Origin: Rickettsiales bacterium
GTDB lineage: Bacteria; Pseudomonadota; Alphaproteobacteria; Rs-D84
Reading direction: 5' to 3'
DNA: 64,000 nucleotides
NCBI GenBank assembly: GCA_031283185.1
Contig: JAITCH010000009.1
Span: forward strand, 1,190 to 65,189
In this document: positions 41,479 to 57,064 of the stretch, in pieces
Layout: the number at the start of each line of letters is the position of its first letter
Position numbering within the stretch: the stretch's first letter is position 1
The notes under the pieces: model-generated
Told to the model about the DNA's origin: nothing
Database searches by the model: none
Seen by the model: the letters and a program-made list of their open reading frames with translations, nothing else
Position numbers and translations under genes: made by a program

Positions 41479-43953
41479 TTACTTCAACGGCGGGAAACAT
41501 GTTTCTTCGTCCCCTTTATTCAGATTGACGCAACATATCTCACTACCATCAGCTTCTTTAACATATTGTTCACCGACTGACGGGCAGCAACCGAAAGCGT
41601 CGGTTTGGCTGCCGTCATCACAGGTTAGTCCTGCGCCGAAAGCGGCGGCGGACTCGGGCTGATTGGGATTGGAAAAGATCTGTTGTTCCAGTGTTGGAAG
41701 TGCGGCGGCTGGTGCAGTGCCGGGCTTCATAATGTTTCCTGCGGCATCGTATTGCAGACCCAGGTATTTATTGTTTCCGTGGGCGTCAAGGTTATTTCCT
41801 GCGGCTTGGGCATTCTGTTGCTGCTGATATGCTTTTTGTTGCGCGACATATTGTGATTCATACATACTTGATTTATCCAAAAATTCTCTAAGAAATGGTG
41901 AGTTTGCATTATATTCAATTTTCCCTGTGGCAGGATTAACATTTGTTCCGCGCACCTGCCCAACCCAATCCGGATCACTGGCTTTGCCTTTAAGAGTCGT
42001 AGCCATTGCTGTTGCATCATCCAAATTAAAGTCTTTGCGCCCTCTATATGAAGTAGGCGTCAAACCTGCCGTTTGATCAATATTGCTCCAATTTACAATA
42101 ATATCTTTATTGGACAGAACTGTGATGCGGGTTCCTGCTGGTATGGTGAATGGAGGCGTCATATTATCCATCATATCAACAAATAATTTCTGCGTTACTT
42201 TGTCCCACGACTTTATAATTTCCTGTTTGGCCAATTCGGACGAACGAAGTTGCCCGCTCTGCGTAACAGTGTTATTGTTCAGGTCGATTTGATTAACAAA
42301 CTTATCAGATATTGGCGCGACAAGATTGACTGCGGCAGGGACAAGTGATGCCGCCATTGGCATAACGATTTGTTCCAAATAATCTGTGGAACCGCGCCCT
42401 GGAATACCCATTCGTCCCTGTGCATCCGCGGAATATACACTTTTATTAGGCAGATAAAATTCCACTCCATCTGGCCGTATCATTTGATACCATTCAACTT
42501 GTATTCTTCCTATGGTCTTATATGGTCCTGGATATTCTGACCCTGTAACAAATCCATAAATAACCGTTCCTGTCGGAATAATTATATTGCGTTCGCTGTC
42601 GGAGAATACATTTCTGTCGACAACCGCACGAACTGGCAGTTCATGTATTCTGGCATCAACACGAATATCACTGACTATTGTTGCTGGTATGGACTTGAAA
42701 GCGCGCATAACGAACTTACGATTAAAAGTTGTTGCCGTAGATATAATTGCATCATTGTTATCAGCAGACAAAGGCTTCAATACACTCTGCTCCTTAGGTT
42801 TTTCAAATGGTCGTCCTGCCGAACCGATTTGCAAACCACCCAAATCCGCTGTTTCAAGTTGTCTTGCCTTGTTGACTGCGCGTGGTACCGAACCAGAACC
42901 ACTCAGTTGCGGGATACCGCCTTTTGATCGGATTGCTCCACGGGTAGAATTGACATGTTCCGCGTCCGAGCCGATTTTTTTATTTTTATCGCGCAGGTCG
43001 TATATAAAGCCGGTTTCTATATTATATTCGCCAGTGGGTTTTTGGCAGTCGTTGTCGGCAAAAGGATGCGCCTTGAAAGTTCCGTTATCCGGGCGAATAA
43101 AGAATGCTTGTTGACCTGACAGGTTGTATCCGACGAAGGCATATTTATAACAATCCTCCACCGCCGAATCAAATGAATAGTCATCTTCTAAATTCCCCGC
43201 CAAGGGTGGCGGGGTGGCGGCATCGCCGCCGGGGTGGTTCGATGTTCCCCCTCCAAGTTGTATTGGCTCCGCAACCGCCGGACTGCTTACCACTTCCTCA
43301 GCATCTGTCATTCCCGCGAAGGCGGGAATCTCAGATTGTTCAGAAACTATCGGCGCAGCCGGCTCCGATGAATTCCCCGCCAAGGGTGGCGGGGTGGCGG
43401 CATTGCCGCCGGGGTGGTTCGACTCATCCGTCGCCTTCACCGACTCCACATTTTCACTTTTAACTTTTGATTCTTCACTCTTAACTCTCAGCGCAATCGG
43501 CACGACGAATTTCTTTGCGGCCTCCGCGGGCGCGCCGACATCGCTGTGTGCGATGATGATTTTTGCATTGCCGCTTTTCGCGCCTTTTGCGGGTTTCCAA
43601 ATCAGGTTAACATTGCAAGGAATTCCAGCGGCGATGCGTTGAAGTCCCGCGCAAGTATTGGTCATAGTCAAACTGGAATCTTTGGATTCCAAAGATACGC
43701 CGTGTATTGCGATTTCCTGTTCAGAAGAAATGACGATGGATTCTTTGACTTCCTGCCCGGATACCGATGCGATGGATATATCAGACGGAGTGGCTTTTAT
43801 GATGGAATTGCTTGCGCCCAGCCCGCCGCCTTTGCCACCTGCGCGTGGTAGGATTACGACTGCGAATATCAGGAGTAGCATTGCGGCGATACCAAGTAGA
43901 GTCCAGCGCAAGTATGCGGGACTAGACTTTTTGATATTCTGAATATATTGCAT
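41479..43953 (-). CDS. Type IV secretion system VirB10/TrbI-like protein (possibly DotG/IcmE-like), with in-frame palindromic-element inserts
   Basis: TM helix. C-terminal IPTGTVIYGFVTGSEYPGPYKTIGRIQVEWYQMIRPDGVEFYL...GIPGRGSTDYLEQ matches the VirB10 beta-barrel domain. Inserts encode EIPAFAGMT and NHPGGDAATPPPLAGN. Start trimmed to MQYIQNIKK at 43953. Confidence 0.65.
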   Translation of the reverse strand: MQYIQNIKKSSPAYLRWTLLGIAAMLLLIFAVVILPRAGGKGGGLGASNSIIKATPSDISIASVSGQEVKESIVISSEQEIAIHGVSLESKDSSLTMTNTCAGLQRIAAGIPCNVNLIWKPAKGAKSGNAKIIIAHSDVGAPAEAAKKFVVPIALRVKSEESKVKSENVESVKATDESNHPGGNAATPPPLAGNSSEPAAPIVSEQSEIPAFAGMTDAEEVVSSPAVAEPIQLGGGTSNHPGGDAATPPPLAGNLEDDYSFDSAVEDCYKYAFVGYNLSGQQAFFIRPDNGTFKAHPFADNDCQKPTGEYNIETGFIYDLRDKNKKIGSDAEHVNSTRGAIRSKGGIPQLSGSGSVPRAVNKARQLETADLGGLQIGSAGRPFEKPKEQSVLKPLSADNNDAIISTATTFNRKFVMRAFKSIPATIVSDIRVDARIHELPVRAVVDRNVFSDSERNIIIPTGTVIYGFVTGSEYPGPYKTIGRIQVEWYQMIRPDGVEFYLPNKSVYSADAQGRMGIPGRGSTDYLEQIVMPMAASLVPAAVNLVAPISDKFVNQIDLNNNTVTQSGQLRSSELAKQEIIKSWDKVTQKLFVDMMDNMTPPFTIPAGTRITVLSNKDIIVNWSNIDQTAGLTPTSYRGRKDFNLDDATAMATTLKGKASDPDWVGQVRGTNVNPATGKIEYNANSPFLREFLDKSSMYESQYVAQQKAYQQQQNAQAAGNNLDAHGNNKYLGLQYDAAGNIMKPGTAPAAALPTLEQQIFSNPNQPESAAAFGAGLTCDDGSQTDAFGCCPSVGEQYVKEADGSEICCVNLNKGDEETCFPPLK
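43190..43460. mobile_element. Palindromic elements inserted in-frame within the VirB10-like CDS
   Basis: aattccccgccaagggtggcggggtggcggcatcgccgccggggtggttcga (two copies) and gtcattcccgcgaaggcgggaatctc. Confidence 0.8.
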
Positions 43954-43974
43954 TACATCCGCCAATTCTATCTC

Positions 43975-44095
43975 TCTAAATTCCCCTTCGCTGGCGAAGG
44001 GGTGTCCGCCTTCGGCGGACGGGGTAGTGGAATTCCCCGCCAAGGGTGGCGGGGTGTCCGGCGTAGCCGGACGGGGTGGTTCGCTACAATTACTC
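43975..44095. repeat. Palindromic elements
   Basis: aattccccttcgctggcgaaggggtgtccgccttcggcggacggggtagtgg; aattccccgccaagggtggcggggtgtccggcgtagccggacggggtggttcg. Confidence 0.8.
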
Positions 44096-44112
44096 GCCAG
44101 GATTTTTTGTCA

Positions 44113-45624
44113 TTACTGAATCCTCACCACATTGCACGCAGTGTTCTGGAACTTGGAAAGTTTCTCACACAACTGCTGCGCTTCATCAATGGACGACAGC
44201 GGACCTACTCGCAACCGATATAACCGCCCTGCGGACGCGCTGGTTCCAAGCGGCCCCACGCCTTGTTCATCAACGGCGAAGAACACTTTGGACGCATATG
44301 GTCCCAAAATACCTTGTCCGCCACCAGCCGAGAAATTCGCCAATAATTTATTCCAGTATTCGCTGAGTGCCTTGACCGAGGTGTCGGATTGAAGTTCAAC
44401 GGCGACACCTTTTTGATTGCTGGCGATTATCGGGACATCTCGGTTTGGCAAGTATGCTCCGGCGGTCAGGCGCGGCGCGGCTCCACCACTGCCGATAAAG
44501 GCATCGTGATCGGTTCCACCACCGCCGCCACCCATCATCATCACGGGCGCGCCATACATAGACGAAGTATCAATAGTTCCATACATCATATTTTGATCCA
44601 TCATCATTCCGCCGCCCATATAGGCATTGTTCAACGAAGTGTTGGAATTCATGCGTTGCATAACATTTGCCTCGGCAAGTGCCATCACGGACGCGGAGTC
44701 GGATATAAGGAATGGCTTGGCGCGTTTCTTTATGCAAACTAACCGCTGACCAGAGCGCAAGACCATATCGCCAACTGCTTCAACTATCAGCAAGCGGCCA
44801 TCGGGGCCATCAGTGCGGAATCCGACCGGGGATTCGCCGCCCTCTATTAATACGCTAACGACTGGCCGTTGAGTCATTGCGATTACCTTGTCGCCGAAAT
44901 CAATGTAAGTGAAAATTCGGTCGCGCCATACGCGTTCCGGGGCGATGACATAGTCGTCTGGGTTGGGGACGAAGATGTCGAGGTCAAAGCGGAATTCGGA
45001 CGGGTCGATTTTCATACTTTTTATCCAACCATAGTCTTCGCCATCAAAGCTGACTGCCGGGGCGGAAGATTTGCCTTTGTTGATTAATGACTTGCTGCCG
45101 AATCCGTTTGAGCCATTAGAGCCGCCGGATATAAGACCCTGACGACCTTCAATGGTTATGTCGACTTGCGAGTATGTTATTTCGGACGCGTTTGCGGGTT
45201 CCGAGCGAAGATAGAAAACATACTTGTTTCCAGATTTTCCTTCAACGATCATATTGGTATCCGAACCTTGATTTTCTGCCTTTGGAGAAATAGATATGGT
45301 TCGTTTTCCAGTCAAATTATTTAGGAATTCGAATAGCGCATTGTTTCCGATAATGGCATCTGCGATTTCCTCACCTTCTGGAAGATTGATTATTGTTACC
45401 ATACCTTGGCGTAGGCGGATTGTCAAAATTGTTCCTGGCGACCAAGATAGTTGTGCATATCCGGGGCGGGACGAACCGGCGGCCATATTGGCTTCGGGAT
45501 TATCCCAAGCATTTTGGACACCGAATTCGTTGGCCATTGCGTTTGACGCGGCGAATAGCATAACCGCCACCATTAACATTGCCGTCAATTCCCCTCCGAA
45601 TAAAATCTTTTTAACTTTCATCAT
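44113..45624 (-). CDS. VirB9/TrbG-like (possibly DotH/IcmK-like) secretion protein with Gly/Met-rich linker and C-terminal SPOR-like domain
   Basis: Signal peptide. Central beta-rich domain. GGGMMMDQNMMYG...MMMGGGGGG low-complexity linker. C-terminal RLYRLRVGPLSSIDEAQQLCEKLSKF is SPOR-like. Confidence 0.5.
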   Translation of the reverse strand: MMKVKKILFGGELTAMLMVAVMLFAASNAMANEFGVQNAWDNPEANMAAGSSRPGYAQLSWSPGTILTIRLRQGMVTIINLPEGEEIADAIIGNNALFEFLNNLTGKRTISISPKAENQGSDTNMIVEGKSGNKYVFYLRSEPANASEITYSQVDITIEGRQGLISGGSNGSNGFGSKSLINKGKSSAPAVSFDGEDYGWIKSMKIDPSEFRFDLDIFVPNPDDYVIAPERVWRDRIFTYIDFGDKVIAMTQRPVVSVLIEGGESPVGFRTDGPDGRLLIVEAVGDMVLRSGQRLVCIKKRAKPFLISDSASVMALAEANVMQRMNSNTSLNNAYMGGGMMMDQNMMYGTIDTSSMYGAPVMMMGGGGGGTDHDAFIGSGGAAPRLTAGAYLPNRDVPIIASNQKGVAVELQSDTSVKALSEYWNKLLANFSAGGGQGILGPYASKVFFAVDEQGVGPLGTSASAGRLYRLRVGPLSSIDEAQQLCEKLSKFQNTACNVVRIQ

Positions 45625-46252
45625 TTGAACTATGCTCCTCGGTTGCCGTATCAAGGTTTTCGATTCTGTAATCTGCTACTTGCACTCCAAAGGGGTTATC
45701 CAGTCGGTCATTCCAACGAATGTTCCTGCTGTCTTCAAAGTGTAGTTTCAGTATTATTGTAGCCTCTTCTTGGGTGGTGTGTCCAGCGACAAGTTCCTTT
45801 ATTTTTCGGACACGGATTGCGTATCGGTCTTGCCCTCGGGGCGTTGGATTTTCAAGGAAAACTATACGCGTAGTCCAGAATGGTTCAGCGGCCAGGACTT
45901 CCTTTGTCAAGGGTTCTGCGGAGAATTCACGAAAAACTTCTGATGTTGACCAGGCGCGAACACGGCCTGTCATACCCCAGCGGCGGGACATAGTGCGCGA
46001 TGATGGGTAGACGCTGAGGCGTTCGACGACATATTGGCGGATGAAGTTTTGTTTGAATAGCTCTAGGTTTTTGGCGTCTGGGTAGTATGGGGCGACGGCT
46101 ATGTAGCGTTCAGATTCTGCGGCGAAGAAGACTTGTTTTTTAACGAGCGGGAATAGTCCGTCGAGTGTTGCCCACAGGACGAATATGACGACGAGTTGGG
46201 CTGCGAGTGCAAAGCCCATGATACGGGACATAATGAATCCCGGAGTAATCAT
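45611..46252 (-). CDS. Type IV secretion VirB8/DotI-like protein
   Basis: N-terminal TM helix, then NTF2-like domain ending in ...NPFGVQVADYRIE (compare the VirB8 C-terminal NPLGFQVTSYR). Confidence 0.65.
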   Translation of the reverse strand: MITPGFIMSRIMGFALAAQLVVIFVLWATLDGLFPLVKKQVFFAAESERYIAVAPYYPDAKNLELFKQNFIRQYVVERLSVYPSSRTMSRRWGMTGRVRAWSTSEVFREFSAEPLTKEVLAAEPFWTTRIVFLENPTPRGQDRYAIRVRKIKELVAGHTTQEEATIILKLHFEDSRNIRWNDRLDNPFGVQVADYRIENLDTATEEHSSNDES

Positions 46253-46324
46253 TTTGTATAGTTCTCCCTACTTTGAGCAAGGGTAGCAATTTTGGAACAC
46301 CTAACGCAAGCATAAAAATACGGC

Positions 46325-46510
46325 TAAAAATTCCCCACTTTTCTTTTGTCATTCCCGCGCAGGCCGGGATATTTGTAATAAGTCATTGCCCGACTTGATC
46401 GGGCAATCTCGGCAAAAAATTCCCCTCCAAGGCTTGTCGCGCCGTAGCGAAGCGCAGGCGGATGGAGGGGTGTCGCGCCGTAGCGAAGCGCAGGCGGACG
46501 GGGTGGTTAG
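46325..46510. repeat. Palindromic element array
   Basis: tgtcattcccgcgcaggccgggat; gtcattgcccgacttgatcgggcaatc; aattcccctccaaggcttgtcgcgccgtagcgaagcgcaggcgga (two copies)...ggggtggtt. Confidence 0.8.
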
Positions 46511-46524
46511 AAAATTTTCTCACC

Positions 46525-47310
46525 TTATTTAACTGTTATCCCAATTTTTTCCATAGAGGCCTTAAAGTTGGCAAGGTCCTGTTCCCATTTATCAATCAGT
46601 TCCTTTTTCTTTTCAGGCGGGAGTTTCATATTATCATCATCCGCCACCCATTTAGCTGATTGTTCTAAAAGCTCTTTCATCCTCTCATCAAAATAACTTT
46701 GATTCCATTCTGTATTTGACTTTTGAGCCTGCTCGGTTTGATTCTGATTGTCTGCTTGCTCTGTGCTTTCCGAAGCTTTCGCCTGACAATCCGACCATCC
46801 GCTCTTTTGGCAAACTTGGACTTTGTCGTCTTGGCAACTTCCACCATAAGTATTCTTATTTTTAGAGCCGTGCCCAAAAACATTTTTACCATCATCAAAC
46901 CTAACATCGCAGCAGTGATATACTTTTTTGCCATCCTCTGGAATACATTTTTTTGCACCCGCATCCTCGGCCTGTTTCAATATTTTTTCTATTTTTTTAC
47001 TATCTTTATCGTTCGCCCCACTTTCCGAGGAAACTTTTGCCTTTTTATTATTTTTACATCCTGCTTTTTTGTTTTCGAAGAAAACATCTTTTTGAGACTT
47101 GCATTCTAACACTTTATTGAATTCTGTCCTTAACTGTTCGGGACTAACATTGTCGCCAAGAAGAATGTCAAAAGATGTTGGACTCTTATCTCTCAATTCT
47201 TTTAACAAATCTTTGGTATCTCTCATGTCTTCTGCAGATGCCGGATATGCTATACCTAGGCATAATGACGAAATAATAATGGAGCGAAATAATGCGCGCA
47301 TTTTCAACAT
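46525..47310 (-). CDS. Secreted lysine-rich cysteine-motif protein (CC...WSDC family)
   Basis: Signal peptide MLKMRALFRSIIISSLCLGIAYPASA. YHCCDVRFDDG...SGWSDCQAK motif shared with the 811-aa neighbour. Confidence 0.6.
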   Translation of the reverse strand: MLKMRALFRSIIISSLCLGIAYPASAEDMRDTKDLLKELRDKSPTSFDILLGDNVSPEQLRTEFNKVLECKSQKDVFFENKKAGCKNNKKAKVSSESGANDKDSKKIEKILKQAEDAGAKKCIPEDGKKVYHCCDVRFDDGKNVFGHGSKNKNTYGGSCQDDKVQVCQKSGWSDCQAKASESTEQADNQNQTEQAQKSNTEWNQSYFDERMKELLEQSAKWVADDDNMKLPPEKKKELIDKWEQDLANFKASMEKIGITVK

Positions 47311-49739
47311 TTTCTCTCATCTCCGCTTTGAATGGCATTTATCTCACATTGTATTGATTTCAATATCTCTTTTATTTCTATCTGTGTCTGAACCAAAACT
47401 TCGCTATAACCTTCATCATCCGCATCTGTCGGGTCGTCCTTTTTATTCGGCTCATTGCTATCTTTTTGTGTCTTGCATTCCGACCAACCATCTTTAAGGC
47501 AATGGCTTTGCTGACCGGATTCGCATTTTCCATTTTTATCAACGGCCCTGCCATTTATACCAAGAATATCTCCAGTTTTGCGAGAATATAACCAAGCACC
47601 AATAACTGGTCCATCCGTAGTAATAATCGCCAAATCCCCTTCTTTTAATTTTGAATTGCAGCAATACATATCTCCGCTTTCATTTGGCATTGGATCGGCA
47701 AAACAGTGTTCTAAATCCTCATTAGCTTTTTTTCTAAGCTCTTCCGCAGCGGCTATTTTTTGTTTATCTTTTTCTTCCGCTTTCGGAGTTTTGGAAGAAC
47801 ATCCCGTCCAGCCGTCTTTTGCACAATAATTCTTACTTCCCTCGTTGCACTTATCTGCATTTATATCATAGTCAATAGTTGCATTATTTTTATATTCACT
47901 AAGCCATTTTGTGCAATTTTTACCATTTTGGTCACAAACCTTTTCTTCTTTAAGATCAGAGTTGCAACAATAATATTCTCCAACCTGCTGTCCTTTGTTA
48001 TTTTTCAGCTGAATACATTTTTTAGTCATTGCCTGTGCTTTGGATTCATTGGATTGTTCACAGTCTGACCAATGAGATTTGAAACCACCTCTGCCAGAAC
48101 CGACACATTTGCGCTCATATCCATTTTTTTCACAGATGTCTCGGGCTTCCCCGATTTTATTATAAGATATATATGCTTTAAGTTCGGCTCGAATTTCATC
48201 ATATTTTTTATCTTTTATTCCGCAACACTCATACACATAATATTCGTCCGGACGGTCATTTTGGTAGCCTGCCGCCAGACAAACTCCCCCATCTATATCC
48301 GCCTTAAATTCTTTTTCTAATTTTTCATCCTTTGCTATATTTTTTTGCAAATCTTTAATTTCTTTATCTAATTTTTTTTGTTTATCTTCACACTTTGACC
48401 ATTTGCCGCCGCTTTGACAAGTCCGTTCTTGATCTTCGCTCTTGCAATTCGTTTGGTCCACACCACCCGTCCGAATATCTTTAATTGGATATGCTCCGGC
48501 TATTAATGACACTCCTTCATCTTGACTTAAATCACAGCAGAAATGGTAAATATCGCTATCCTTTCCTTTTACGCATTTATTTTTAAGTATTTTTTCAAGA
48601 TCTGCTTCTTTTTGATTTTGTCCCTTGGTATTTTTGCAATCCGACCATTTCCATTCTCCACCATAAGATGAATTTCCAGTATCGGAGGTATCTGCGACGG
48701 CACTTCCTCCTTGATACATACAAGTTCTTTCTTGTCCTTCATAGTTGCAATCTATTTTATTGCTTTTGCCTTGTTTATATGTTTGCGCCAATCCTGCAAA
48801 TTTTTCACCGCAGCAATGGGTTTTCCCATCAAGACCTTTCTTGCACGATTGCGAGTTTGCGAATTGTTCTCTTTTGTTCGCATCGTTCTTTGCTTGATTT
48901 TCAACTGCTATTCTGTCTTTCTCTGCTTGTATTTTCGCAGCCTCGTCTGCCTTTCGTTTGTCCTCAGCTACTTTGGCCAGTCGCACAAGTTCTTTATCTT
49001 CCTTGCATACCCATGTTTGGGATTCGCAAGTTAATGCCGCTGTATTTTTGCAAAAAGTATCTTTTGGATCGGTCAGAATTCCGCCGTTTCCAATTTGCAT
49101 AACCACCCTTCCGAGACCTAATTCTAGCCTTGTCCAATGATGCCCCACGCCAATTCCACAACAAGTATAAGAGCCGGATGTTAATTCTTTGCATTTTTGG
49201 TCGGCTTTCATTTTCTTTATTTCGTTTTCGTTTTCCGCTTTTGTTCTGGCAGCTTGGCTTGCTTGCTGTGATGCTTGGTTTGCTGCTGCGGAATCGGCGG
49301 CGGAAAAATTGGAATTTGCGGCTGCGGCACCTTGATTATCATCTCTCGCACGATTGACCTGTTGTTCTGATTTTACTGGGCACGAACAAATTACGGATTT
49401 TCTGTCGGCCGATCCTGATCTAGACTCACAATATTTTTCTAAAATTTGTTTTCGCCAAGCATCCTCAGCCATTGAGAATTTAGTATATTCTTCTATTACT
49501 GCTCTTGATGGATATTTATCTGTTTCACTTTTTTCTAATGAAATTTGTTTTCCACATTCAGCAAATGCGATCGCCTGGGAAATTTGTAAATTCAGAGTTA
49601 AAAAAACAAAGGCAGAGCAAAATAACCTAATAGAGTTTATAGGTGTGTGTGTGTGTGTGTGTGTAGGTTTCTGCCATTTTTCATTGTCTCGCCTGTTTTT
49701 CTTATGTCTAATTATATCAGATTCCAATCCTATTTCCAA
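47304..49739 (-). CDS. Large secreted repetitive lysine-rich cysteine-motif protein (HxCC...WSxC repeats); 5' end runs through an (AC)11 tract
   Basis: Signal peptide LFCSAFVFLTLNLQISQAIAFA immediately 3' of the THTHTHT-encoding (AC)11 tract. Repeated HCCGEK/HFCCDL/YECCGI/YYCCNS/MYCCNS and WSDC/WSKC/WTGC/WSEC motifs. The track start is a TTG overlapping the -35 box, so the true start is uncertain (see findings). Confidence 0.6.
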   Translation of the reverse strand: MEIGLESDIIRHKKNRRDNEKWQKPTHTHTHTPINSIRLFCSAFVFLTLNLQISQAIAFAECGKQISLEKSETDKYPSRAVIEEYTKFSMAEDAWRKQILEKYCESRSGSADRKSVICSCPVKSEQQVNRARDDNQGAAAANSNFSAADSAAANQASQQASQAARTKAENENEIKKMKADQKCKELTSGSYTCCGIGVGHHWTRLELGLGRVVMQIGNGGILTDPKDTFCKNTAALTCESQTWVCKEDKELVRLAKVAEDKRKADEAAKIQAEKDRIAVENQAKNDANKREQFANSQSCKKGLDGKTHCCGEKFAGLAQTYKQGKSNKIDCNYEGQERTCMYQGGSAVADTSDTGNSSYGGEWKWSDCKNTKGQNQKEADLEKILKNKCVKGKDSDIYHFCCDLSQDEGVSLIAGAYPIKDIRTGGVDQTNCKSEDQERTCQSGGKWSKCEDKQKKLDKEIKDLQKNIAKDEKLEKEFKADIDGGVCLAAGYQNDRPDEYYVYECCGIKDKKYDEIRAELKAYISYNKIGEARDICEKNGYERKCVGSGRGGFKSHWSDCEQSNESKAQAMTKKCIQLKNNKGQQVGEYYCCNSDLKEEKVCDQNGKNCTKWLSEYKNNATIDYDINADKCNEGSKNYCAKDGWTGCSSKTPKAEEKDKQKIAAAEELRKKANEDLEHCFADPMPNESGDMYCCNSKLKEGDLAIITTDGPVIGAWLYSRKTGDILGINGRAVDKNGKCESGQQSHCLKDGWSECKTQKDSNEPNKKDDPTDADDEGYSEVLVQTQIEIKEILKSIQCEINAIQSGDERKC

Positions 49740-49760
49740 AGCATTTTTTCCTTACCCCCT
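49600..49760 (-). promoter_or_regulatory. Conserved promoter/leader module with (AC)n tract, copy 1
   Basis: On the coding strand: TTGGAA, 17-nt spacer, TATAAT, then ATGAAAAATGGCAGAAACCTAC(AC)11. The same module is found at 60764-60897 and 63785-63925. Confidence 0.6.
49643..49664. repeat. Dinucleotide repeat tract (GT)11 / (AC)11
   Basis: Read directly: aggtgtgtgtgtgtgtgtgtgtgtagg. Confidence 0.95.
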
Positions 49761-49769
49761 CTTGTCGCG

Positions 49770-49830
49770 CTCAAAAGTCCCCTTCGCTGGCGAAGGGGTG
49801 CGCCCGCAGGGCGCGGGGTAGTGGTTAAAA
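49770..49830. repeat. Palindromic element
   Basis: gtccccttcgctggcgaaggggtgcgcccgcagggcgcggggtagtggtt. Confidence 0.8.
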
Positions 49831-50015
49831 CCCGCAAAAAACATTAGGGGTATCGCAACGGCACGGCAGGCCGTCCAATACCAAGAAACGGCAGGGCGCG
49901 GTGGGCTGGATGCCCATAAGTTTCCCTGCCGTTCCGCCGCGTAGTGGGCGGAAATGACGCGGCGGGATGAAAAACACCCCTTATGTTTTTTGTCCTTTTA
50001 TGTTATAATACCTTT

Positions 50016-51278
50016 ATGAAACTCCAATTGGTGGCATTGTCCGCCCTGCTTTTAACAGCCTGTGATGTGCGGGAAAAGATTACCGGGCGCGCCACAGAAC
50101 CCGACCGCGCCACTGGCGACTTTTGGGAAATTCCCCTCCAAGGTGGAGGGGTGCCGCGTAGCGGCGGGGTGGTTGAGGATTACGGCACATTCCAACCCAC
50201 ATACCTTGCAACGGCTAACCCAAGCGAATACCACCAAACGGCGAATATGGCGGATTATATTCCACCAACCCCACCTGCGCCGGTCATAACGCAGGATGAA
50301 GAGCCCGAAGATACATTGCTAGTGCCGAAACGCGCCGCGCCGACACCTGCGCCTGCTGCGGTCGCGCCCAAACAAGATTTGATCAAGGTCGCACCGGGCG
50401 ACACGCTTTATTCCATTTCGCGGAAATATAATGTGCCACTCCGCGACCTTATTACATCGAACAAGTTGGAAGCACCTTACGCGTTGAAACCGGGGCAAAC
50501 GCTTTATATGCCATCTCAGTTTGTGCATACGGTTGCGAAGGGCGAAACGCTGTATAGCATTTCGCGGCTGTATCAAATGGATACGAATAGTTTGGCTACG
50601 ATGAATAGTTTGAAGGAGCCGTATTCGCTGAAAGTTGGTCAAAAACTCATCCTCCCCGCCCAGATTCAGTTAACAGATACTAAGTCCCCTTCGTCTGGCG
50701 AAGGAAATAATAAGTCATCCTCCGACTTGATCGGGGGATCTCGGCCGACTTCTCCTGCCCCCGTAGCCGGGGGCGGGATGTCCGGCCCTGCCGGACAGGG
50801 TGGGGGTAATGTCCCCGCGGCAGAACCCACCCGCACACCCGAACCAAAGGTCGTGAAGAAATCCACACCGGTTTCAAGCCTGGCCAAGGCACCCGCACGG
50901 AGCAGTAGTAAGTTTGCCTGGCCAATCCGCGGGACAATACTCTCGCCATTCGGGGCGAAACCGAATGGCCTTTATAATGACGGAATTAATATCAAAGGCA
51001 CCAAGGGCGCACCGGTTTCGGCGGCGGAAAACGGAGTTGTCGCATACGCCGGGAACGAGATAAAAGGTTTAGGCAACCTCGTCATAATTAAACACGCGGA
51101 TGGCTTTATGAGCGTGTATGCCCATCTTGACACGATATTGGTTGAACGCGGGAAACAAGTATCAGTTGGCGCGAAAATCGGCTCAGTCGGACAAACGGGC
51201 AAGGTCAATTCACCACAATTACACTTCGAAGTCCGTAAAGGCACGAAAGCCTTCAACCCCACCAGTTATCTCCGATAA
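50016..51278 (+). CDS. LysM-domain M23 murein endopeptidase lipoprotein (NlpD-like) with in-frame palindromic-element inserts
   Basis: Lipobox LLTAC. Two LysM motifs (DTLYSISRKYNV; ETLYSISRLYQM). C-terminal M23 domain (HADGFMSVYAHL...GQTGKVNSPQLHFE). Inserts encode IPLQGGGVPRSGGVV and KSPSSGEGNNKSSSDLIGGSRP...GGGNVP. Confidence 0.8.
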   Translation: MKLQLVALSALLLTACDVREKITGRATEPDRATGDFWEIPLQGGGVPRSGGVVEDYGTFQPTYLATANPSEYHQTANMADYIPPTPPAPVITQDEEPEDTLLVPKRAAPTPAPAAVAPKQDLIKVAPGDTLYSISRKYNVPLRDLITSNKLEAPYALKPGQTLYMPSQFVHTVAKGETLYSISRLYQMDTNSLATMNSLKEPYSLKVGQKLILPAQIQLTDTKSPSSGEGNNKSSSDLIGGSRPTSPAPVAGGGMSGPAGQGGGNVPAAEPTRTPEPKVVKKSTPVSSLAKAPARSSSKFAWPIRGTILSPFGAKPNGLYNDGINIKGTKGAPVSAAENGVVAYAGNEIKGLGNLVIIKHADGFMSVYAHLDTILVERGKQVSVGAKIGSVGQTGKVNSPQLHFEVRKGTKAFNPTSYLR

Positions 51279-51280
51279 AG

Positions 51281-51340
51281 TCCCCTTCGCTGGCGAAGGG
51301 GTGGATGCCGAAGGCAGACGGGGTAGTGGTAATAAAAAAT
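51281..51340. repeat. Palindromic element
   Basis: gtccccttcgctggcgaaggggtggatgccgaaggcagacggggtagtggtaat, identical to the unit at 13800. Confidence 0.85.
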
Positions 51341-51357
51341 AGCAGCCAACAATATAA

Positions 51358-51600
51358 TTAAAACAAATTTTTAACAAGTGCCAAAATTTCTTTCTGAGGA
51401 ATTCCTAGTGCTTTGCATACATCTATCAGTTCCACGACATCCAGTCGTCTATCCTTGACTTCAAATCTTGAAACATAAGATCGGGGCACTTTTAAGATCT
51501 CGGCCAATTGGCGTTGAGTTATACCTTTGGCTATGCGAAAACTTACCACTTGTTTAATCAAGTGTTTATATCTGTCATCAAAAATCGTTTTTGCCCTCAT
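51358..51600 (-). CDS. XRE-family helix-turn-helix transcriptional regulator
   Basis: 80 aa. ITQRQLAEILKVPRSYVSRFE HTH. Confidence 0.7.
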   Translation of the reverse strand: MRAKTIFDDRYKHLIKQVVSFRIAKGITQRQLAEILKVPRSYVSRFEVKDRRLDVVELIDVCKALGIPQKEILALVKNLF

Positions 51601-51747
51601 AATGAGGACATACTACTCGTCTTGACTTATGCACTCATATTGCGGGCGAATTGTATTGACCGCGTTGGAATAAAAACCTATAATTGCACTCAATATGCGG
51701 GCATACCGCCCCATATAAACTTAATAACAAAACCAAAGGATTGTAAA

Positions 51748-52779
51748 ATGAAAAAGTTAATTTTGTTATTACCATTTATGCTTGCCTCCTGTGGTGGAGG
51801 CTTGTTCAGCTATCCCAATGATCCCAACAAACTTCCGCAAATTTCAAGGGTAAGCACGGCAACGGCGGCCAACAATGCGAAAATAACAGGAATGGTGTCC
51901 GAGATAGGCGTTGATACCGAAGGCAATCATACCAATTTGGCGCGTTCTGCATCCGGCACGGCCAATATAAGTGGCAAGACATATAAATTATACAGATTAG
52001 ATGACGCCAATTTCAAGGCTGCAATGGGCAATGGAAAGCCCGACACAATGAAATTTGTTATTGATAAGAACGGAAAAATAACTGGCATTCATTTTGTTGA
52101 AGAAGCCGTTTTCAAAGGCGAATTGAAACGACAAAATGACACAGGCAATTTTATAGTTAACGCGGCGGCGAACGGAAATGCGACAGGTTCTTTTGCTTAT
52201 GACAGCATTGGGAAACAACTTGGACTTTCGTATTCAGATTTTGGAACGATGACTTTCAACGGATCTGTTGGCGGAGAAAATTTTACCAATGTCAAAGTTC
52301 CTTTTGCTGGCGGATATGAAATAAAAAAAATTAACAAAGGCGATATTGCCGGCGAAGCAAAATTTACAGGACGAGCCATAGGATATATTGAAGCACAAGG
52401 CCAGGGTCTGCACAACCTTATCCCTGCGAGCGCAAAAAATGCCACTCTTACATTTAACGCGGGCAAGGAAACCTTGGAAGCGAATTTCAGCAACTGGTAT
52501 GATGTGAAGATTAGCACATTTGCCTACAATGATATTTCCGTGCAGTTTATCGGCAACGGGAAAAACGCGCCACAGGCATATAAAGATGGTTTTACTACAA
52601 ATGAAGGCGATGTCAGATATTTTGACACAAACTATTATGGCGACAAAAAAATCCCAAGCGAAGCCACGGCATTATTTGAGTATAGCGTTCTAGCGACAGA
52701 ACAAAATGGCGCGCCTCGGAACGACCCGAATTATGATTGGAATTTGACGCTTGGTTTTGGCGGAACAAGAACTCAATAA
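51748..52779 (+). CDS. Surface lipoprotein (TbpB/fHbp-like beta-barrel lipoprotein; putative Slam substrate)
   Basis: Lipobox MLASCGGG. LSYSDFGTMTF and AKFTGRAIGY motifs typical of Slam-dependent surface lipoproteins. Stop codon abuts the next gene's ATG. Start trimmed from the track ORF. Confidence 0.55.
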   Translation: MKKLILLLPFMLASCGGGLFSYPNDPNKLPQISRVSTATAANNAKITGMVSEIGVDTEGNHTNLARSASGTANISGKTYKLYRLDDANFKAAMGNGKPDTMKFVIDKNGKITGIHFVEEAVFKGELKRQNDTGNFIVNAAANGNATGSFAYDSIGKQLGLSYSDFGTMTFNGSVGGENFTNVKVPFAGGYEIKKINKGDIAGEAKFTGRAIGYIEAQGQGLHNLIPASAKNATLTFNAGKETLEANFSNWYDVKISTFAYNDISVQFIGNGKNAPQAYKDGFTTNEGDVRYFDTNYYGDKKIPSEATALFEYSVLATEQNGAPRNDPNYDWNLTLGFGGTRTQ

Positions 52780-54120
52780 ATGAAAAGAATAATTGTTGTT
52801 TTAATATACTTGATTCTGCCGACCTTTGCGTCGGCAGAATCTTCTACTACAAGCGAAATAACAATGTCGGCGGTTGACGCGCTTAAACTGGCGGGGGCGT
52901 TTGTCGAGCGCGAAGATTTCAATAGCGCGGAACAAATTCTTACAAAAATGCCACCGCTTGATAATGGAGTGTTGGAAGTAGAGCGTTGGTTTTTGATGGG
53001 CAGGATTTCTGCATTTCGCGGGGATTTTGACACAGCGATAAAAATATATCGTCGGATTCTTGACGCGCAGCCGAATCTTGCAAGGGTTCGCTTTGAATTG
53101 GCCGTTTGTTATACAAAACTGGGACAATGGTGGCGCGCGGATTATCATTTACGGCTTGCTATGGCCGGGGATGATTTACCTGACGAAGTTAAAAATATAA
53201 TGAATTATTTCCGATATTTTGTGCGACAAAACAAGAATTGGAATGCTTGGTTCAGTTTCGGAGCCGCGCCTGATAACAACATAAACTCAGCGGCAGGCGG
53301 CGAAGAATGCGTAATGACGATATTCGGTTTGATGTGTCGACAATTGCCAGAACCGGAACGCGCGATAGGATATAACTTTGTCCTTGGCGGCAATTACGAA
53401 TTCAAGTTATCCGACCAATGGCGATGGAAGTCCGAGGGAAACATTTACACAAATGCATATGACAAATCCAAATACGATGATTTATATTTATCCGCCAGCA
53501 CAGGCCCGCGCTATGTTTGGAAATATGGCGATGTTTGGCTGGCTGGAATCGCTGCTCGTCGTTGGTATGGCTGGGAAGGTTATAATTGGTCAACAGGCGC
53601 AAAAATAGATATAAATTACGATTTCTCACGCAAGTTATTAGGAGGGCTGTCATTGCTCGCGTCAAAAAATATCTATGATAATTTCAGTGAATATATGGAT
53701 GGCGAAACATATGGCGCGAATGCGCGGCTGACATATTACATAGATGCGGATATGTATATTATTTTGCGTAGCGGACTTGATAGGGAAATCACAATTGACT
53801 TGATTTATTCCAATTGGCGACCAAGTGTTGGCGCGGGATTTGGGATTGAATTACCGGCACGATTCAGCGTATATTTTGACACTAATTTCTATTGGCAGGA
53901 TTATGATGGGCAAAGGTGGATTGTTAAGGACAATTCATTTTCACAGGTTGCAGAACATAACTTTACGCATAGATATGCGGTGTCGGTATCAAATAGCAAG
54001 TTCAGGGTTTGGGATTTTGCGCCGATGCTTACATTCAGTTATACCAGGCGCGATTCTAACATCTGGCAGCGGGAGTATGACAAATGGGCAATTGAATTTT
54101 CAATGCAACAGCGATTTTAA
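52780..54120 (+). CDS. Slam-like outer-membrane protein (N-terminal TPR plus DUF560 beta-barrel)
   Basis: Signal peptide. TPR-like helices (AEQILTKM...YRRILDAQPNLARVRFELAVCYTKLGQW). Tyr/Trp-rich beta-strands. C-terminal ...FSMQQRF aromatic terminus. Confidence 0.6.
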   Translation: MKRIIVVLIYLILPTFASAESSTTSEITMSAVDALKLAGAFVEREDFNSAEQILTKMPPLDNGVLEVERWFLMGRISAFRGDFDTAIKIYRRILDAQPNLARVRFELAVCYTKLGQWWRADYHLRLAMAGDDLPDEVKNIMNYFRYFVRQNKNWNAWFSFGAAPDNNINSAAGGEECVMTIFGLMCRQLPEPERAIGYNFVLGGNYEFKLSDQWRWKSEGNIYTNAYDKSKYDDLYLSASTGPRYVWKYGDVWLAGIAARRWYGWEGYNWSTGAKIDINYDFSRKLLGGLSLLASKNIYDNFSEYMDGETYGANARLTYYIDADMYIILRSGLDREITIDLIYSNWRPSVGAGFGIELPARFSVYFDTNFYWQDYDGQRWIVKDNSFSQVAEHNFTHRYAVSVSNSKFRVWDFAPMLTFSYTRRDSNIWQREYDKWAIEFSMQQRF

Positions 54121-54149
54121 TATCCCTGCCTCCTTGCTCGGCGAAAATA

Positions 54150-54252
54150 CCCTGCCCCCTTGAGGGGCGGGGCGGTCGCTTTTATGCGACCGGGGGTGGG
54201 GGTTAATAAAAGCGGGTGGGGGTCTCCTGACCCCCACCCGAACATTTTATCA
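54150..54252. repeat. Nested palindromic elements plus terminator-like hairpin
   Basis: ccctgcccccttgaggggcggggcggtcgcttttatgcgaccgggggtgggggtt; gcgggtgggggtctcctgacccccacccgaacattttatc. Confidence 0.8.
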
Positions 54253-54264
54253 ACTTAATTATAC

Positions 54265-54702
54265 TTACTCAGCAACTTCTTCGCTGGCTGCTTCTTCTGC
54301 GACATCCGCATCGGCGGCAGCGGCTTTATCGCCTTTCTTAGATTTCTTGCCTTTGTTGTCTTTTGATTTATCACCTTTGGACTTTTTGGCTTTGGCCTCG
54401 GGCGCAGCGGCGGTTTCAACTTCCACCACAGCAACTTCTTCTACCCCGGCTTCTTTGGTCTCGACTACGACCACGGCCTCTTCAACGACTTCGGCATTTT
54501 TGTTAAATTTGCCAGCGCGCTTGGCATCTTTATTTTTCTCAAACTTCGCGCCACGGGCATCTTTACCGGACTTATCGGCTCTTTCGGACTTTTCCGCACG
54601 CACTTTTTTAGAAGTCTGGGCGGTTCCATCATTTGCCGGAAGGTTAATAGTGCAGCCTGCTGCCAAGATTGCGGCGATAAGTAGTGCTAATGATTTTTTC
54701 AT
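54265..54702 (-). CDS. Lys/Ala/Glu-rich low-complexity lipoprotein
   Basis: Lipobox LAAGC. KKSKGDKSKDNKGKKSKKGDK histone-H1-like tail. Confidence 0.5.
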   Translation of the reverse strand: MKKSLALLIAAILAAGCTINLPANDGTAQTSKKVRAEKSERADKSGKDARGAKFEKNKDAKRAGKFNKNAEVVEEAVVVVETKEAGVEEVAVVEVETAAAPEAKAKKSKGDKSKDNKGKKSKKGDKAAAADADVAEEAASEEVAE

Positions 54703-54787
54703 AATATTTTCCTTTTTGTTTTGGGTTTGCGAATAAGATTTTAGATTATCTTCCTGCCCGGAATCAAGGATATTTTTTCCGGCGGCT

Positions 54788-54822
54788 CCACCCCTTGAAA
54801 AAGCGCGCGATTCCCACTATAT
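54788..54822 (+). promoter_or_regulatory. Putative sigma32 heat-shock promoter upstream of clpB
   Basis: ctccaccccTTGAAAaagcgcgcgattCCCACTATatg, compare consensus CNCCCTTGAA-N13-17-CCCCATNT. Spacer is slightly short. Confidence 0.4.
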
Positions 54823-54879
54823 GAATATTATCCAGGCGGGAACCCACCGCGCCTGTGGTAAAATATCTCAGTCATCACC

Positions 54880-54915
54880 CGGCTTGACCGGGTGATCTCG
54901 GCCGAATAAAAAAGG
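54880..54915. repeat. Palindromic element in the clpB 5' UTR
   Basis: gtcatcacccggcttgaccgggtgatctcggccgaat. Confidence 0.8.
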
Positions 54916-54923
54916 ACAACGCA

Positions 54924-57020
54924 ATGGAACCAGAACAGACATCTTCACCGACCGAAGCACTAAAAAAGTTCACGACGGATTTCACGGAACTTGCGGCGGC
55001 GGGCAAACTTGACCCAGTAATCGGGCGCGATGACGAAGTCCGCCGCGCTATCCAGGTCTTGACGCGCCGCACGAAAAATAATCCAGTGTTAATCGGACAG
55101 CCGGGCGTGGGTAAAACGGCTATTGCCGAAGGCCTCGCCCACCGCATCATCGCAGGCGATGTGCCGGAAAATTTATTGGGGCGCAAAATCCTGTCGTTGG
55201 ATCTTGGGGCATTAATTGCGGGCGCAAAGTATCAGGGTGAATTTGAAGAAAGGCTGAAAAATGTGCTCCGCGCGGTCAAGGAATCGGATGGGAAAATCAT
55301 CCTATTTATAGACGAACTTCATATGGTGGTGGGCGCGGGCAAAACAAGCGGCGCGATGGACGCGGGGAATCTGTTGAAACCAATGCTTGCCCGCGGCGAA
55401 TTGCATTGTATGGGCGCGACGACATTGGACGAATACCGCGAGTATATAGAAAAAGACCCTGCTCTCGCCCGCAGATTTCAGCCAGTTTTCGTGGACGAGC
55501 CAAGCGTGGAAGACACCATTTCGATTTTGCGCGGATTAAAAGAAAGATACGAAGGCCACCACGGCGTGCGTATTTCCGATGCCGCATTGGTAGCGGCGGC
55601 GAGGCTGAGCGACCGCTATATCCAGGATAGATTTCTGCCCGACAAAGCGATTGATTTAATTGACGAGGCGGCCGCGCGTGTCCGCATTACGATTGCTTCA
55701 AAGCCGGAAAAATTGGACGAGATTGATCGCAGATTGACGCAGATGAAAATAGAGCGCGAGGCATTAAAAAAAGAAAAGGACGCGGATTCCAAAAAGCGGC
55801 TTGCCGAAATTGAAACCGAATTGACCGACATAGAAAAGCAGTCCGCAACTATGAACGCGGAATGGAAAACAGAGCGCGAAAATATGAAATCATTAGCGCG
55901 TGCGATTGAAGAACTTGATGCGGCGAAAGCGGAAATGCAAAGTGCCGTGCGCCGCGGCGATTACGCGGCGGCAGGCAGTTTGCAAAACGGGCGCATTCCA
56001 GAACTCAACACACAAATTGCGGAACTTGAAAAGACTAATACCGAAGACTTAAAAACCGTATCCACCGCGCATATTGAACAGGTGGTGTCGAAATGGACGG
56101 GGATACCCGTGCAGAAATTGTCCGCGGATGAACAGACAAAATTGCTTGGGATTGAAACCGAACTTGGCAAGCGCGTAGTTGGCCAAGACGAGGCTCTCGG
56201 CGTTATCGCGCGTGCTATACGCCGTAGCCGCGCGGGATTATCCGACAGCCGCCGCCCGCAGGGATCGTTTATGTTCTTGGGTCCAACTGGGGTCGGAAAA
56301 ACGGAATTGGTAAAGGCGGTTGCGGAATTGTTGTTTGACGATGATGCCGCAATGACCAGGATTGATATGAGCGAATATATGGAGCCGCATTCGGTGTCGC
56401 GTTTGATCGGCAGCCCTCCGGGTTATGTTGGATATGAGCAAGGCGGGACTCTGACGGAATCGGTTCGCCGCCGCCCGTATCAAGTGGTGCTGTTTGATGA
56501 AATTGAAAAAGCGCACCGCGATGTTTTTAATGTCCTGCTCCAAGTTTTGGACGACGGGCGATTGACTGACGGACAGGGTCGCACTGTTAATTTTTCTAAT
56601 ACGATAATTATTATGACATCAAACCTCGGCTCGGATTTATTGTTGGAAGACGCGACAAATACGGACGGGGTTATGGCATTGTTGCGAAGCACGCTCCGCC
56701 CAGAATTCTTAAATCGTATTGATGAAATAATAATGTTCAAGCCGCTTGCGCGCGAAGTAATGGATAAGATAGTAGAGATACAACTTAGCGATCTCACCCG
56801 TCGACTTCAATCACGCGGCTTTGGTTTGCATACATCAAAAAAGGCAATCGATTGGCTCGCGGACAAGGGCTATGATCCGATGTTTGGCGCACGCCCATTG
56901 CGGCGTTTGATTATGTCAGAGGTTGAAGACAAAATCGCCGACTTGATATTGTCGGACAAATTAAAACCCGGCAGCACCATAGATATAGATACCAAATCCA
57001 ACAATTTAATTATAGCATAA
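54924..57020 (+). CDS. clpB: Chaperone ClpB lacking the N-terminal domain
   Basis: Begins directly at the NBD1 pre-Walker region ([16 protein letters not shown]...GQPGVGKT). M-domain coiled coil, NBD2 [14 protein letters not shown] sensor. No upstream coding sequence (promoter within 130 nt). Confidence 0.85.
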
Positions 57021-57060
57021 AGCGGGTGGGGGTCTCCCGACCCCCACCCGAACATTTTAT
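57021..57060. terminator. GC-rich hairpin element after clpB (terminator-like palindromic element)
   Basis: gcgggtgggggtctcccgacccccacccgaacattttatc. The same element occurs at 35872, 54212, 59030 and as a variant at 25648. Confidence 0.55.
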
Positions 57061-57064
57061 CACC

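Follow-up and report, generated by a model that had tools for sequence, protein, structure and literature searches.

A Slam gene abutting a lipoprotein gene of an unannotated family in an Rs-D84 Rickettsiales genome

Surface lipoprotein assembly modifiers (Slams), the outer-membrane proteins of the type 11 secretion system (T11SS), exist in every proteobacterial class (PMC5449769). Their cargo comprises surface proteins that govern how Gram-negative bacteria feed on and evade their hosts, and several of these are vaccine antigens. Slams adjoin lipoproteins of the TbpB fold in approximately 52% of the clusters examined, and those tested were displayed in a Slam-dependent manner (PMC5449769). 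Three parts define the cargo class: a lipobox or signal peptide, an N-terminal handle or “pedestal” that varies, and an eight-stranded β-barrel at the C-terminus, the last of which is common to all predicted Slam-dependent lipoproteins (PMC5449769, PMC12282271). Some ten cargo architectures have been catalogued, with the barrel shared and the N-terminal parts variable (PMC12282271). Described here is a Slam gene and the lipoprotein gene directly before it, the candidate cargo, on a 64,000-nucleotide stretch (hereafter the window) of contig JAITCH010000009.1 from a Rickettsiales bacterium of the GTDB lineage Rs-D84. Members of the order Rs-D84 have genome sizes below 1 Mbp, no respiration and few biosynthetic pathways, and probably depend on partner cells (PMC12306168).

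The 446-amino acid (aa) Slam of the window shares with Slam1 and Slam2 of Neisseria meningitidis, and with other DUF560 T11SS proteins, a signal peptide, a periplasmic tetratricopeptide repeat (TPR) domain, a barrel predicted to have 14 strands and a C-terminal Phe (PMC5449769, PMC7857515), along with adjacency to a gene for a lipoprotein with an eight-stranded barrel. It is distinguished by falling into a tight clade (57-75% identity among the best 120 matches) and by scoring below the cutoff of the Slam-specific TPR model PF24575; a Cys177/Cys186 hairpin is conserved among its own homologues. The lipoprotein, as modelled, has the lipobox, flexible tether, N-terminal β-rich domain and eight-stranded barrel of fHbp, the NHBA C-terminal domain and PmSLP-1 of Pasteurella multocida, which rank among its best structural matches; as with these proteins, no adjacent TonB-dependent receptor was seen. 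In contrast to these proteins, to which it has no detectable sequence similarity, its handle is larger (about 12 predicted strands over residues 52-190), and whereas they bind vertebrate complement regulators or heparin, there is no indication of such a ligand for the window protein.

One handle-plus-barrel lobe of TbpB or LbpB shares its topology with the window lipoprotein, but these receptors are bilobed, with two handle-barrel pairs (PMC12282271), and the matched chains span 529-600 residues as against a single lobe of 343 aa here. They work with a TonB-dependent partner, none of which was seen near the window lipoprotein, and the Pfam TbpB_B_D model does not recognize the latter. Haemophilin/HphA haemophores are soluble, lack a lipobox and carry an N-terminal haem-binding clamp, whereas the lipobox of the window protein is conserved. 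In the NilB/NilC pair of Xenorhabdus nematophila, a DUF560 outer-membrane protein and a small, otherwise unannotated surface lipoprotein are encoded side by side, with a role in host association and not in iron piracy (PMC5449769, PMC9100927); the likeness to the window pair lies in genetic organisation and proposed role only.

The Slam gene and its abutting lipoprotein gene

The 343-codon reading frame of the lipoprotein ends with TAA at 52777-52779, and the triplet that follows, at 52780, is the ATG of the 446-codon Slam frame, which closes at 54120 on the same strand (Table 1); the abutment of the two genes claimed in the original prediction is exact. In a mechanical list of open reading frames, the lipoprotein frame begins further upstream, with a TTG at 51508. 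The ATG at 51748 is preferable as a start, because it follows an AAGGA, gives a protein that opens with the signal peptide and lipobox, and is the start used in MDR2685513.1, a record of 343 aa with which the protein is 100% identical over 100% of its length. The public records of both genes derive from a metagenome-assembled genome labelled “Rickettsiales bacterium”, in which the downstream protein already bears the name given in Table 1; the Slam half of the pair is therefore already annotated. No further copy of either gene is present within the window.

A promoter-like sequence and a strong hairpin bracket the two genes. The hairpin has T-rich tails on both strands and is terminator-like in both directions, and the operon likely extends from the one element to the other. 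In the 20 nucleotides (nt) before the Slam ATG there is no Shine-Dalgarno match of 4 nt or more. Because the stop codon of the lipoprotein gene abuts this ATG, and because the Slam gene lacks a Shine-Dalgarno sequence of its own while the lipoprotein gene has one, Slam synthesis is probably coupled to translation of the lipoprotein through re-initiation. Such coupling, if true, would keep the translocon at or below the level of its cargo.

Table 1. Coordinates of the lipoprotein-Slam pair, the domains of its products and the associated sequence signals
Feature	Position	Strand	Basis
Candidate promoter, sigma-70 type, TTGACC-17 nt-TATAAT	51656..51684	+	11/12 consensus matches, the best of any + strand site in this region; ~64 nt before the lipoprotein start
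Shine-Dalgarno-like AAGGA, 7 nt before the lipoprotein ATG	51736..51740	+	Motif scan (AGGA at -8 relative to the scanned window)
Candidate cargo gene, 343-aa lipoprotein of unannotated family	51748..52779	+	Open reading frame; MDR2685513.1, “hypothetical protein LBB23_01920”
Lipobox L-A-S-C, residues 12-15	51781..51792	+	Sequence; Cys15 is the predicted acylated mature N-terminus
Lipoprotein N-terminal β-rich handle/pedestal, residues ~37-190	51856..52317	+	DSSP strands 52-190; conserved NAxITGMxS, GLSYSDFG, PFAGGY; insertion hot spots
Lipoprotein C-terminal predicted eight-stranded β-barrel, residues 203-341	52354..52770	+	Model strands; NHBA/TbpB structural matches; conserved FTGRAxG, ATLxF, NWYDV, YYG…PxEAxG, C-terminal FG
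TAA-ATG junction, lipoprotein stop abutting Slam start	52777..52782	+	Sequence; translational coupling inferred
Slam/type 11 secretion outer-membrane protein gene, 446 aa	52780..54120	+	PF04575; MDR2685514.1, “surface lipoprotein assembly modifier”
Periplasmic TPR domain of the Slam, with seven helices over residues 31-151	52870..53232	+	Pfam TPR_19/TPR_14; AlphaFold helices
Slam DUF560 membrane barrel, residues 154-446	53239..54117	+	AlphaFold strands; 14 long strands, short hairpin 175-188, terminal Phe446
GC-rich hairpin, 12-bp stem, separating the Slam gene from the convergent gene 54265-54702	54213..54240	.	12 pairs, 10 of them G-C

Its sequence identifies the 446-aa protein as a Slam, an outer-membrane protein of T11SS. 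It scores 97 bits with the Pfam family PF04575 (SlipAM, formerly DUF560), for which the cutoff lies at 22 (E = 1.9e-27), and the alignment joins residues 154-446 to the profile from end to end (1-288 of 288). An autotransporter or another outer-membrane protein family, the outcome that the original prediction had itself named as contrary, is excluded by this match over the whole profile. Upstream of the barrel, the TPR_19 (35.1 bits, cutoff 25) and TPR_14 (27.1 bits, cutoff 23.5) models match residues 68-117, consensus-TPR structures found by searching PDB sequences match residues 36-145 with E-values down to 1e-35, and PF24575 reaches 26.1 bits, under its cutoff of 35.2. The signal peptide ends in …PTFASA, followed by ESS. 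An AlphaFold model built from an alignment of 46 homologues (mean predicted local distance difference test score, pLDDT, of 85.1) displays helices at residues 31-43, 47-56, 63-79, 83-96, 101-113, 117-128 and 135-151, and 14 long strands between residues 154 and 445. The Cys177/Cys186 pair, invariant among the homologues as is Phe446, sits in a short hairpin (residues 175-188) that follows the first strand. With 5.1% Trp and 8.2% Tyr over residues 154-446, the protein has each of the attributes from which it had been recognized beforehand, namely an N-terminal TPR region, a Trp/Tyr-rich barrel and a terminal Phe.

A Foldseek search with the Slam model returned generic TPR-plus-barrel exporters (BcsC, PelBC and the polysaccharide secretin 4y25) and porin-type barrels. 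The best template modelling (TM) score at the level of the barrel was that of the porin OmpG (2iwv_A, 0.63 on target), and FadL and CymA were also among the matches; all three are 14-stranded barrels. Sequence searching found no Slam barrel among the PDB sequences. The members of the Slam clade encountered in the genome scan described below are uncultured gut alphaproteobacterial metagenome-assembled genomes.

The lipoprotein begins with MKKLILLLPFMLAS, followed by CGGG, such that its lipobox reads L12-A13-S14-C15; L12 and C15 are each kept in 90% or more of 74 homologues. In the model, the Gly-rich tether beyond Cys15 is disordered, with pLDDT under 50 for residues 1-24. The two motifs on which its kinship with surface lipoproteins had been proposed both occur, LSYSDFGTMTF spanning residues 160-170 and AKFTGRAIGY residues 203-212. 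No Pfam or NCBIfam family matches the protein at E-values up to 1, and a phmmer search of PDB sequences with it found nothing. When each of the 74 homologues was compared with Pfam individually, no cargo-barrel model (TbpB_B_D, fHbp C-terminal domain) was recovered; ten longer relatives gave no Pfam match either, and the family profile matched no surface-lipoprotein chain among PDB sequences. An hhalign comparison of the family with fHbp, for which the query was an approximate sequence, gave a probability of 1.1%. The expectation that the lipoprotein is not TbpB, LbpB, HpuA or fHbp is therefore correct at the level of sequence.

The AlphaFold model of the lipoprotein, derived from a 74-sequence alignment, has a pLDDT of 83.6 and a predicted TM score of 0.82, and bears out the barrel fold that had been anticipated, with eight C-terminal strands at residues 203-216, 224-237, 240-246, 252-257, 263-268, 287-299, 302-314 and 331-341. 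Among 350,542 PDB chains searched with Foldseek, the best match is TbpB (9clm_B, E = 3.6e-5, probability 1.00, about 314 aligned columns; also 9yz4_B, E = 4.8e-4), and further top matches include fHbp chimeras (5nqy), the NHBA C-terminal domain (6cuj_B, TM 0.60 on target) and PmSLP-1 (9b3h_B). The best solved-structure matches are thus all Slam-dependent surface lipoproteins. As modelled, the lipoprotein is a single-lobe handle-plus-barrel protein with the canonical fold of Slam cargo; it agrees structurally with the published definition of the cargo class and departs from it only at the level of sequence models. Of the new Slam substrate class suggested by the original prediction, the new sequence family stands, whereas the structural class, composed of lipobox, handle and eight-stranded barrel, is canonical.

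Within the lipoprotein, a handle segment, KPDTMKFVIDKNGKITGIHF (52036-52095, residues 97-116), resembles a hairpin of the barrel, ATLTFNAGKETLEANF (52441-52488, residues 232-247). In the hhalign comparison, too, no stretch but the former was aligned with the fHbp barrel hairpin, at an insignificant probability and with the approximate fHbp query. The likeness of the two segments may reflect an internal duplication, of which a handle or barrel unit was the subject.

The lipoprotein family and its linkage to Slam genes

One genome per species was scanned across 185,579 species, with an alignment of 11 family sequences as the query. The scan returned 26 loci in 23 genomes, all of them from uncultured Alphaproteobacteria of gut type that bear the labels Ca. 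Enterousia, Rickettsiales or just Alphaproteobacteria. These loci were found through the lipoprotein alone, and Slam genes were then located by tblastn with the window Slam. A Slam orthologue lies within 7 kb of the lipoprotein gene in 18 of the 26 loci (16 of the 23 genomes), where about 0.9 would be expected (binomial P of approximately 5e-21, assuming a genome of 0.9 Mb with two Slam genes). The pairing of the two genes is not a chance juxtaposition.

The arrangement of the pair varies between loci. The lipoprotein gene precedes the Slam gene on one strand, with gaps of 12-90 nt, in L005, L011, L015, L019 and L028, and follows it in L001 and L002; a second lipoprotein paralogue is transcribed divergently in L003, L008-L010 and others. 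Two to four paralogues are present in 13 of the 26 loci, and some genomes hold two separate Slam-plus-lipoprotein loci (L008 and L020; L006 and L028). Arrays of two to four paralogues beside one Slam gene are seen in L007 (7001-14388), L006, L008 with L020, and L028. The Slam match of L028 falls into two pieces that leave out residues 73-215, and may represent a pseudogene or an assembly break. The genes for an XRE regulator and an NlpD-like LysM-M23 protein upstream of the window pair, and for a small Lys/Ala-rich lipoprotein downstream, were not found at related loci. These three are accordingly rejected as parts of the system, and the lipoprotein-Slam pair is the conserved unit. No TonB-dependent receptor occurs among the annotated neighbours in the window, from 41479 to 57739, or at five related loci (L001-L003, L031 and L032). 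In the distant relative L031 (1-9233), the Slam-plus-lipoprotein cluster adjoins a very large gene of the two-partner-secretion/filamentous-haemagglutinin type (TPS, Fil_haemagg_2), with several unannotated genes of 300-420 aa and P2-like phage tail genes nearby.

The family is large. A word-indexed search found 128 relatives of the lipoprotein, none carrying a Pfam domain, and when the profile was searched exhaustively, 633 clusters (50% identity) had E-values up to 1e-3, of which 244 had E-values up to 1e-30. Conserved throughout are the lipobox and, in the handle, NAxITGMxS (43-51), GLSYSDFG (159-166) and PFAGGY (185-190); the barrel contributes the motifs FTGRAxG, ATLxF, NWYDV and YYG…PxEAxG and an FG[GA]xxK/Q tail at the C-terminus, in which F337 and G338 are invariant. 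Restricted to one uncultured lineage among the reference genomes scanned, absent from Pfam and NCBIfam, and without detectable similarity to verified cargo in any of the searches made, this is a new sequence family.

Compared with the window proteins at the same loci, the Slams are 51-68% identical and the lipoproteins 25-38%. Mean column entropy in the lipoprotein alignment is higher in loops than in strands (1.89 vs 1.58), and insertions cluster in handle loops, after residues ~55, 121-150 and 271-280. This combination of fast divergence, paralogues, variable loops and handle insertions suggests, from the alignments, that the lipoprotein evolves in the manner of a surface protein. Most family members are longer (405-440 aa), since their handle is interrupted, after the position of residue ~55, by an additional domain (alignment columns ~100-260) in which cysteines and a WR motif are conserved; the window lipoprotein and its nearest relatives lack it.

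Proposed working and competing explanations

Taken together, these observations favour, with a probability of roughly 80%, a self-contained Slam operon whose lipoprotein is a Slam-displayed, stand-alone ligand-binding surface protein. The gene structure, the assignments to family and fold, the linkage and the pattern of divergence are results of the analysis; that the protein is lipidated and displayed by Slam, that translation is coupled, and what the ligand or role may be are inferred, with the pathway modelled on established Slam systems (PMC5449769, PMC7857515, PMC9090332). Following these, the lipoprotein would be exported by Sec, acylated at Cys15, and carried to the outer membrane by the Lol pathway and periplasmic chaperones. 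The adjacent Slam, probably translated by re-initiation after the lipoprotein, would recognize the C-terminal eight-stranded barrel and, by means of its periplasmic TPR domain and 14-stranded barrel, move the protein to the cell surface, where it would stay tethered by its lipid and Gly-rich linker. A stand-alone binding protein is favoured over a component of a TbpB-type receptor or a haemophore because no TonB-dependent receptor was seen near the pair in the window or at the five related loci and the protein has a single lobe. By analogy with NilC, fHbp, NHBA and PmSLP, its role may lie in contact with host or partner-cell surfaces, through adhesion or capture.

Several points weigh against this reading. 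The lipoprotein has no sequence-level link to any verified cargo, both folds are predictions within a wholly computational analysis, and the ligand and role are drawn purely from architecture and context. As for the promoter and terminator, they were recognized by consensus alone. Over the whole chain, the TM scores with solved structures of surface lipoproteins reach a modest 0.34-0.40 (on query), as would be expected for a two-domain protein with divergent loops. In addition, 8 of the 26 loci have no Slam gene inside 7 kb; TbpB and fHbp, both known cargo, are likewise not known to be linked to Slam1 in Neisseria.

The same translocation could instead serve nutrient capture, with the lipoprotein acting as a haemophore, metallophore or TbpB-like protein that passes its ligand to a TonB-dependent or other importer encoded elsewhere. 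TbpB is indeed its best structural match, many cargo of cluster-1 T11SS are iron or haem proteins (PMC8406197, PMC12282271), and organisms of the related lineage Rs-D84 lack many biosynthetic pathways and must scavenge (PMC12306168). This explanation is nonetheless unlikely given the small single-lobed chain, compared with the bilobed TbpB and LbpB, and given that no haemophilin/HphA structure appears among the top 50 Foldseek matches and no TonB-dependent receptor in the neighbourhoods of the window and the five related loci. Rs-D84 genomes also lack respiratory chains (PMC12306168), which is taken to weaken any strong demand for haem or iron. Two specific forms were rejected: a bipartite receptor of the TbpB/LbpB type, on the single lobe and the lack of a receptor neighbour at the loci examined, and a haemophilin-type haemophore, on the conserved lipobox and the lack of a structural match among the top 50.

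Release of the protein into the medium as a soluble effector after translocation by Slam, as for haemophilin or a Cys-mutant TbpB, has precedent in that T11SS also secrete soluble cargo and translocation is possible without lipidation (PMC7857515, PMC8406197). Conservation of the lipobox Cys in at least 90% of the 74 members is taken to mean that acylation matters, however, and makes this outcome improbable. Least probable is that the lipoprotein is not cargo, being instead a periplasm-facing accessory or regulator of Slam, or merely co-transcribed with it, with the real substrates encoded elsewhere. The predicted nature of its surface exposure, the family loci that lack a nearby Slam gene and the missing similarity to verified cargo would all be compatible with such a view. 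Against it, the model has the handle and eight-stranded barrel of known cargo, the barrel being the very domain common to all predicted Slam-dependent lipoproteins (PMC5449769, PMC12282271), and the lipoprotein shows a divergence far faster than that of Slam and an expansion into tandem paralogues, as is expected of an exposed protein and not of a stoichiometric subunit.

Neighbouring features and significance

Several features elsewhere in the window deserve brief mention. Convergent with the Slam gene lies the small lipoprotein gene already noted as not conserved beside Slam at related loci (54265-54702, minus strand), the product of which has 145 aa, begins with MKKSLALLIAAILAAG followed by C, matches no Pfam family and contains very many Lys, Ala and Glu residues. 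Beyond it, on the plus strand, a ClpB homologue (54924-57020) of only 698 aa starts approximately where the first AAA module begins, with stop codons in all three frames upstream; the gene seems, from the sequence, to lack the ClpB N-terminal domain. A GC-rich palindrome of 27 nt, AAAGTCCCCTTCGCTGGCGAAGGGGTG, is repeated exactly at 49774-49800 and 51277-51303, on either side of the NlpD-like gene, and both copies share a downstream motif (49814-49830 and 51319-51335). Similar GC-rich hairpins lie 3' of the Slam gene, at 54154-54168 and at the terminator-like 54213-54240. Together these palindromes may belong to one family of intergenic repeats that act as hairpins or terminators.

On the minus strand upstream of the pair, three consecutive type IV secretion genes (41479-46252) encode TrbI/VirB10-like (854 aa), CagX/VirB9-like (513 aa, with a C-terminal SPOR domain) and VirB8-like (213 aa) proteins. 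They are followed by an unannotated reading frame of 261 aa (46525-47310) and then by the frame 47304-49739 (minus strand), which encodes an 811-aa Cys-rich protein with no Pfam match. A (CA)10 tract at 49644-49663 (minus strand) occupies the 5' end of this frame, just downstream of two ATGs, at 49684 and 49677, both of which, as assembled, lead to a stop after 15-16 codons. Loss of one repeat unit would bring the ATG at 49684 into frame (792 aa) and gain of one unit the ATG at 49677 (791 aa), and both products would have a segment resembling a signal peptide near the N-terminus. As far as sequence can tell, this is the layout of a slipped-strand phase-variable gene.

With regard to the pair itself, the known mechanism of Slam is unchanged: organisation and predicted mechanism are the same, and the novelty lies in the sequence family of the cargo. 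Published surveys select candidate cargo through similarity to verified cargo (PMC12282271), so a family with the right fold but without detectable sequence similarity would be missed at that step. No Rickettsiales or Enterousia were found in the part of the supplementary data of that survey covered here (PMC12282271). The pair thereby adds a large unannotated family that is structurally canonical, as modelled, and statistically linked to Slam. While its mechanism holds no surprise, it would be of use to specialists for its lineage, for the expansion of paralogues in tiny genomes and for its very divergent barrel, with which a two-gene pair is well suited to tests of Slam specificity.

The presence of multiple fast-diverging Slam cargo genes in small genomes fits the description of Rs-D84. 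With two to four such copies alongside one or two Slam loci, in genomes that do not exceed about 1 Mbp, a broader and still doubtful possibility is that the family constitutes the main surface interface of an obligately partner-dependent lifestyle, in which Slam-displayed scaffolds with swappable handle inserts bind other cells or steal their metabolites. If true, this would represent a use of T11SS beyond the known roles in vertebrate iron piracy and complement evasion. The pair is a concrete candidate for how organisms of the Rs-D84 lineage contact their partners.

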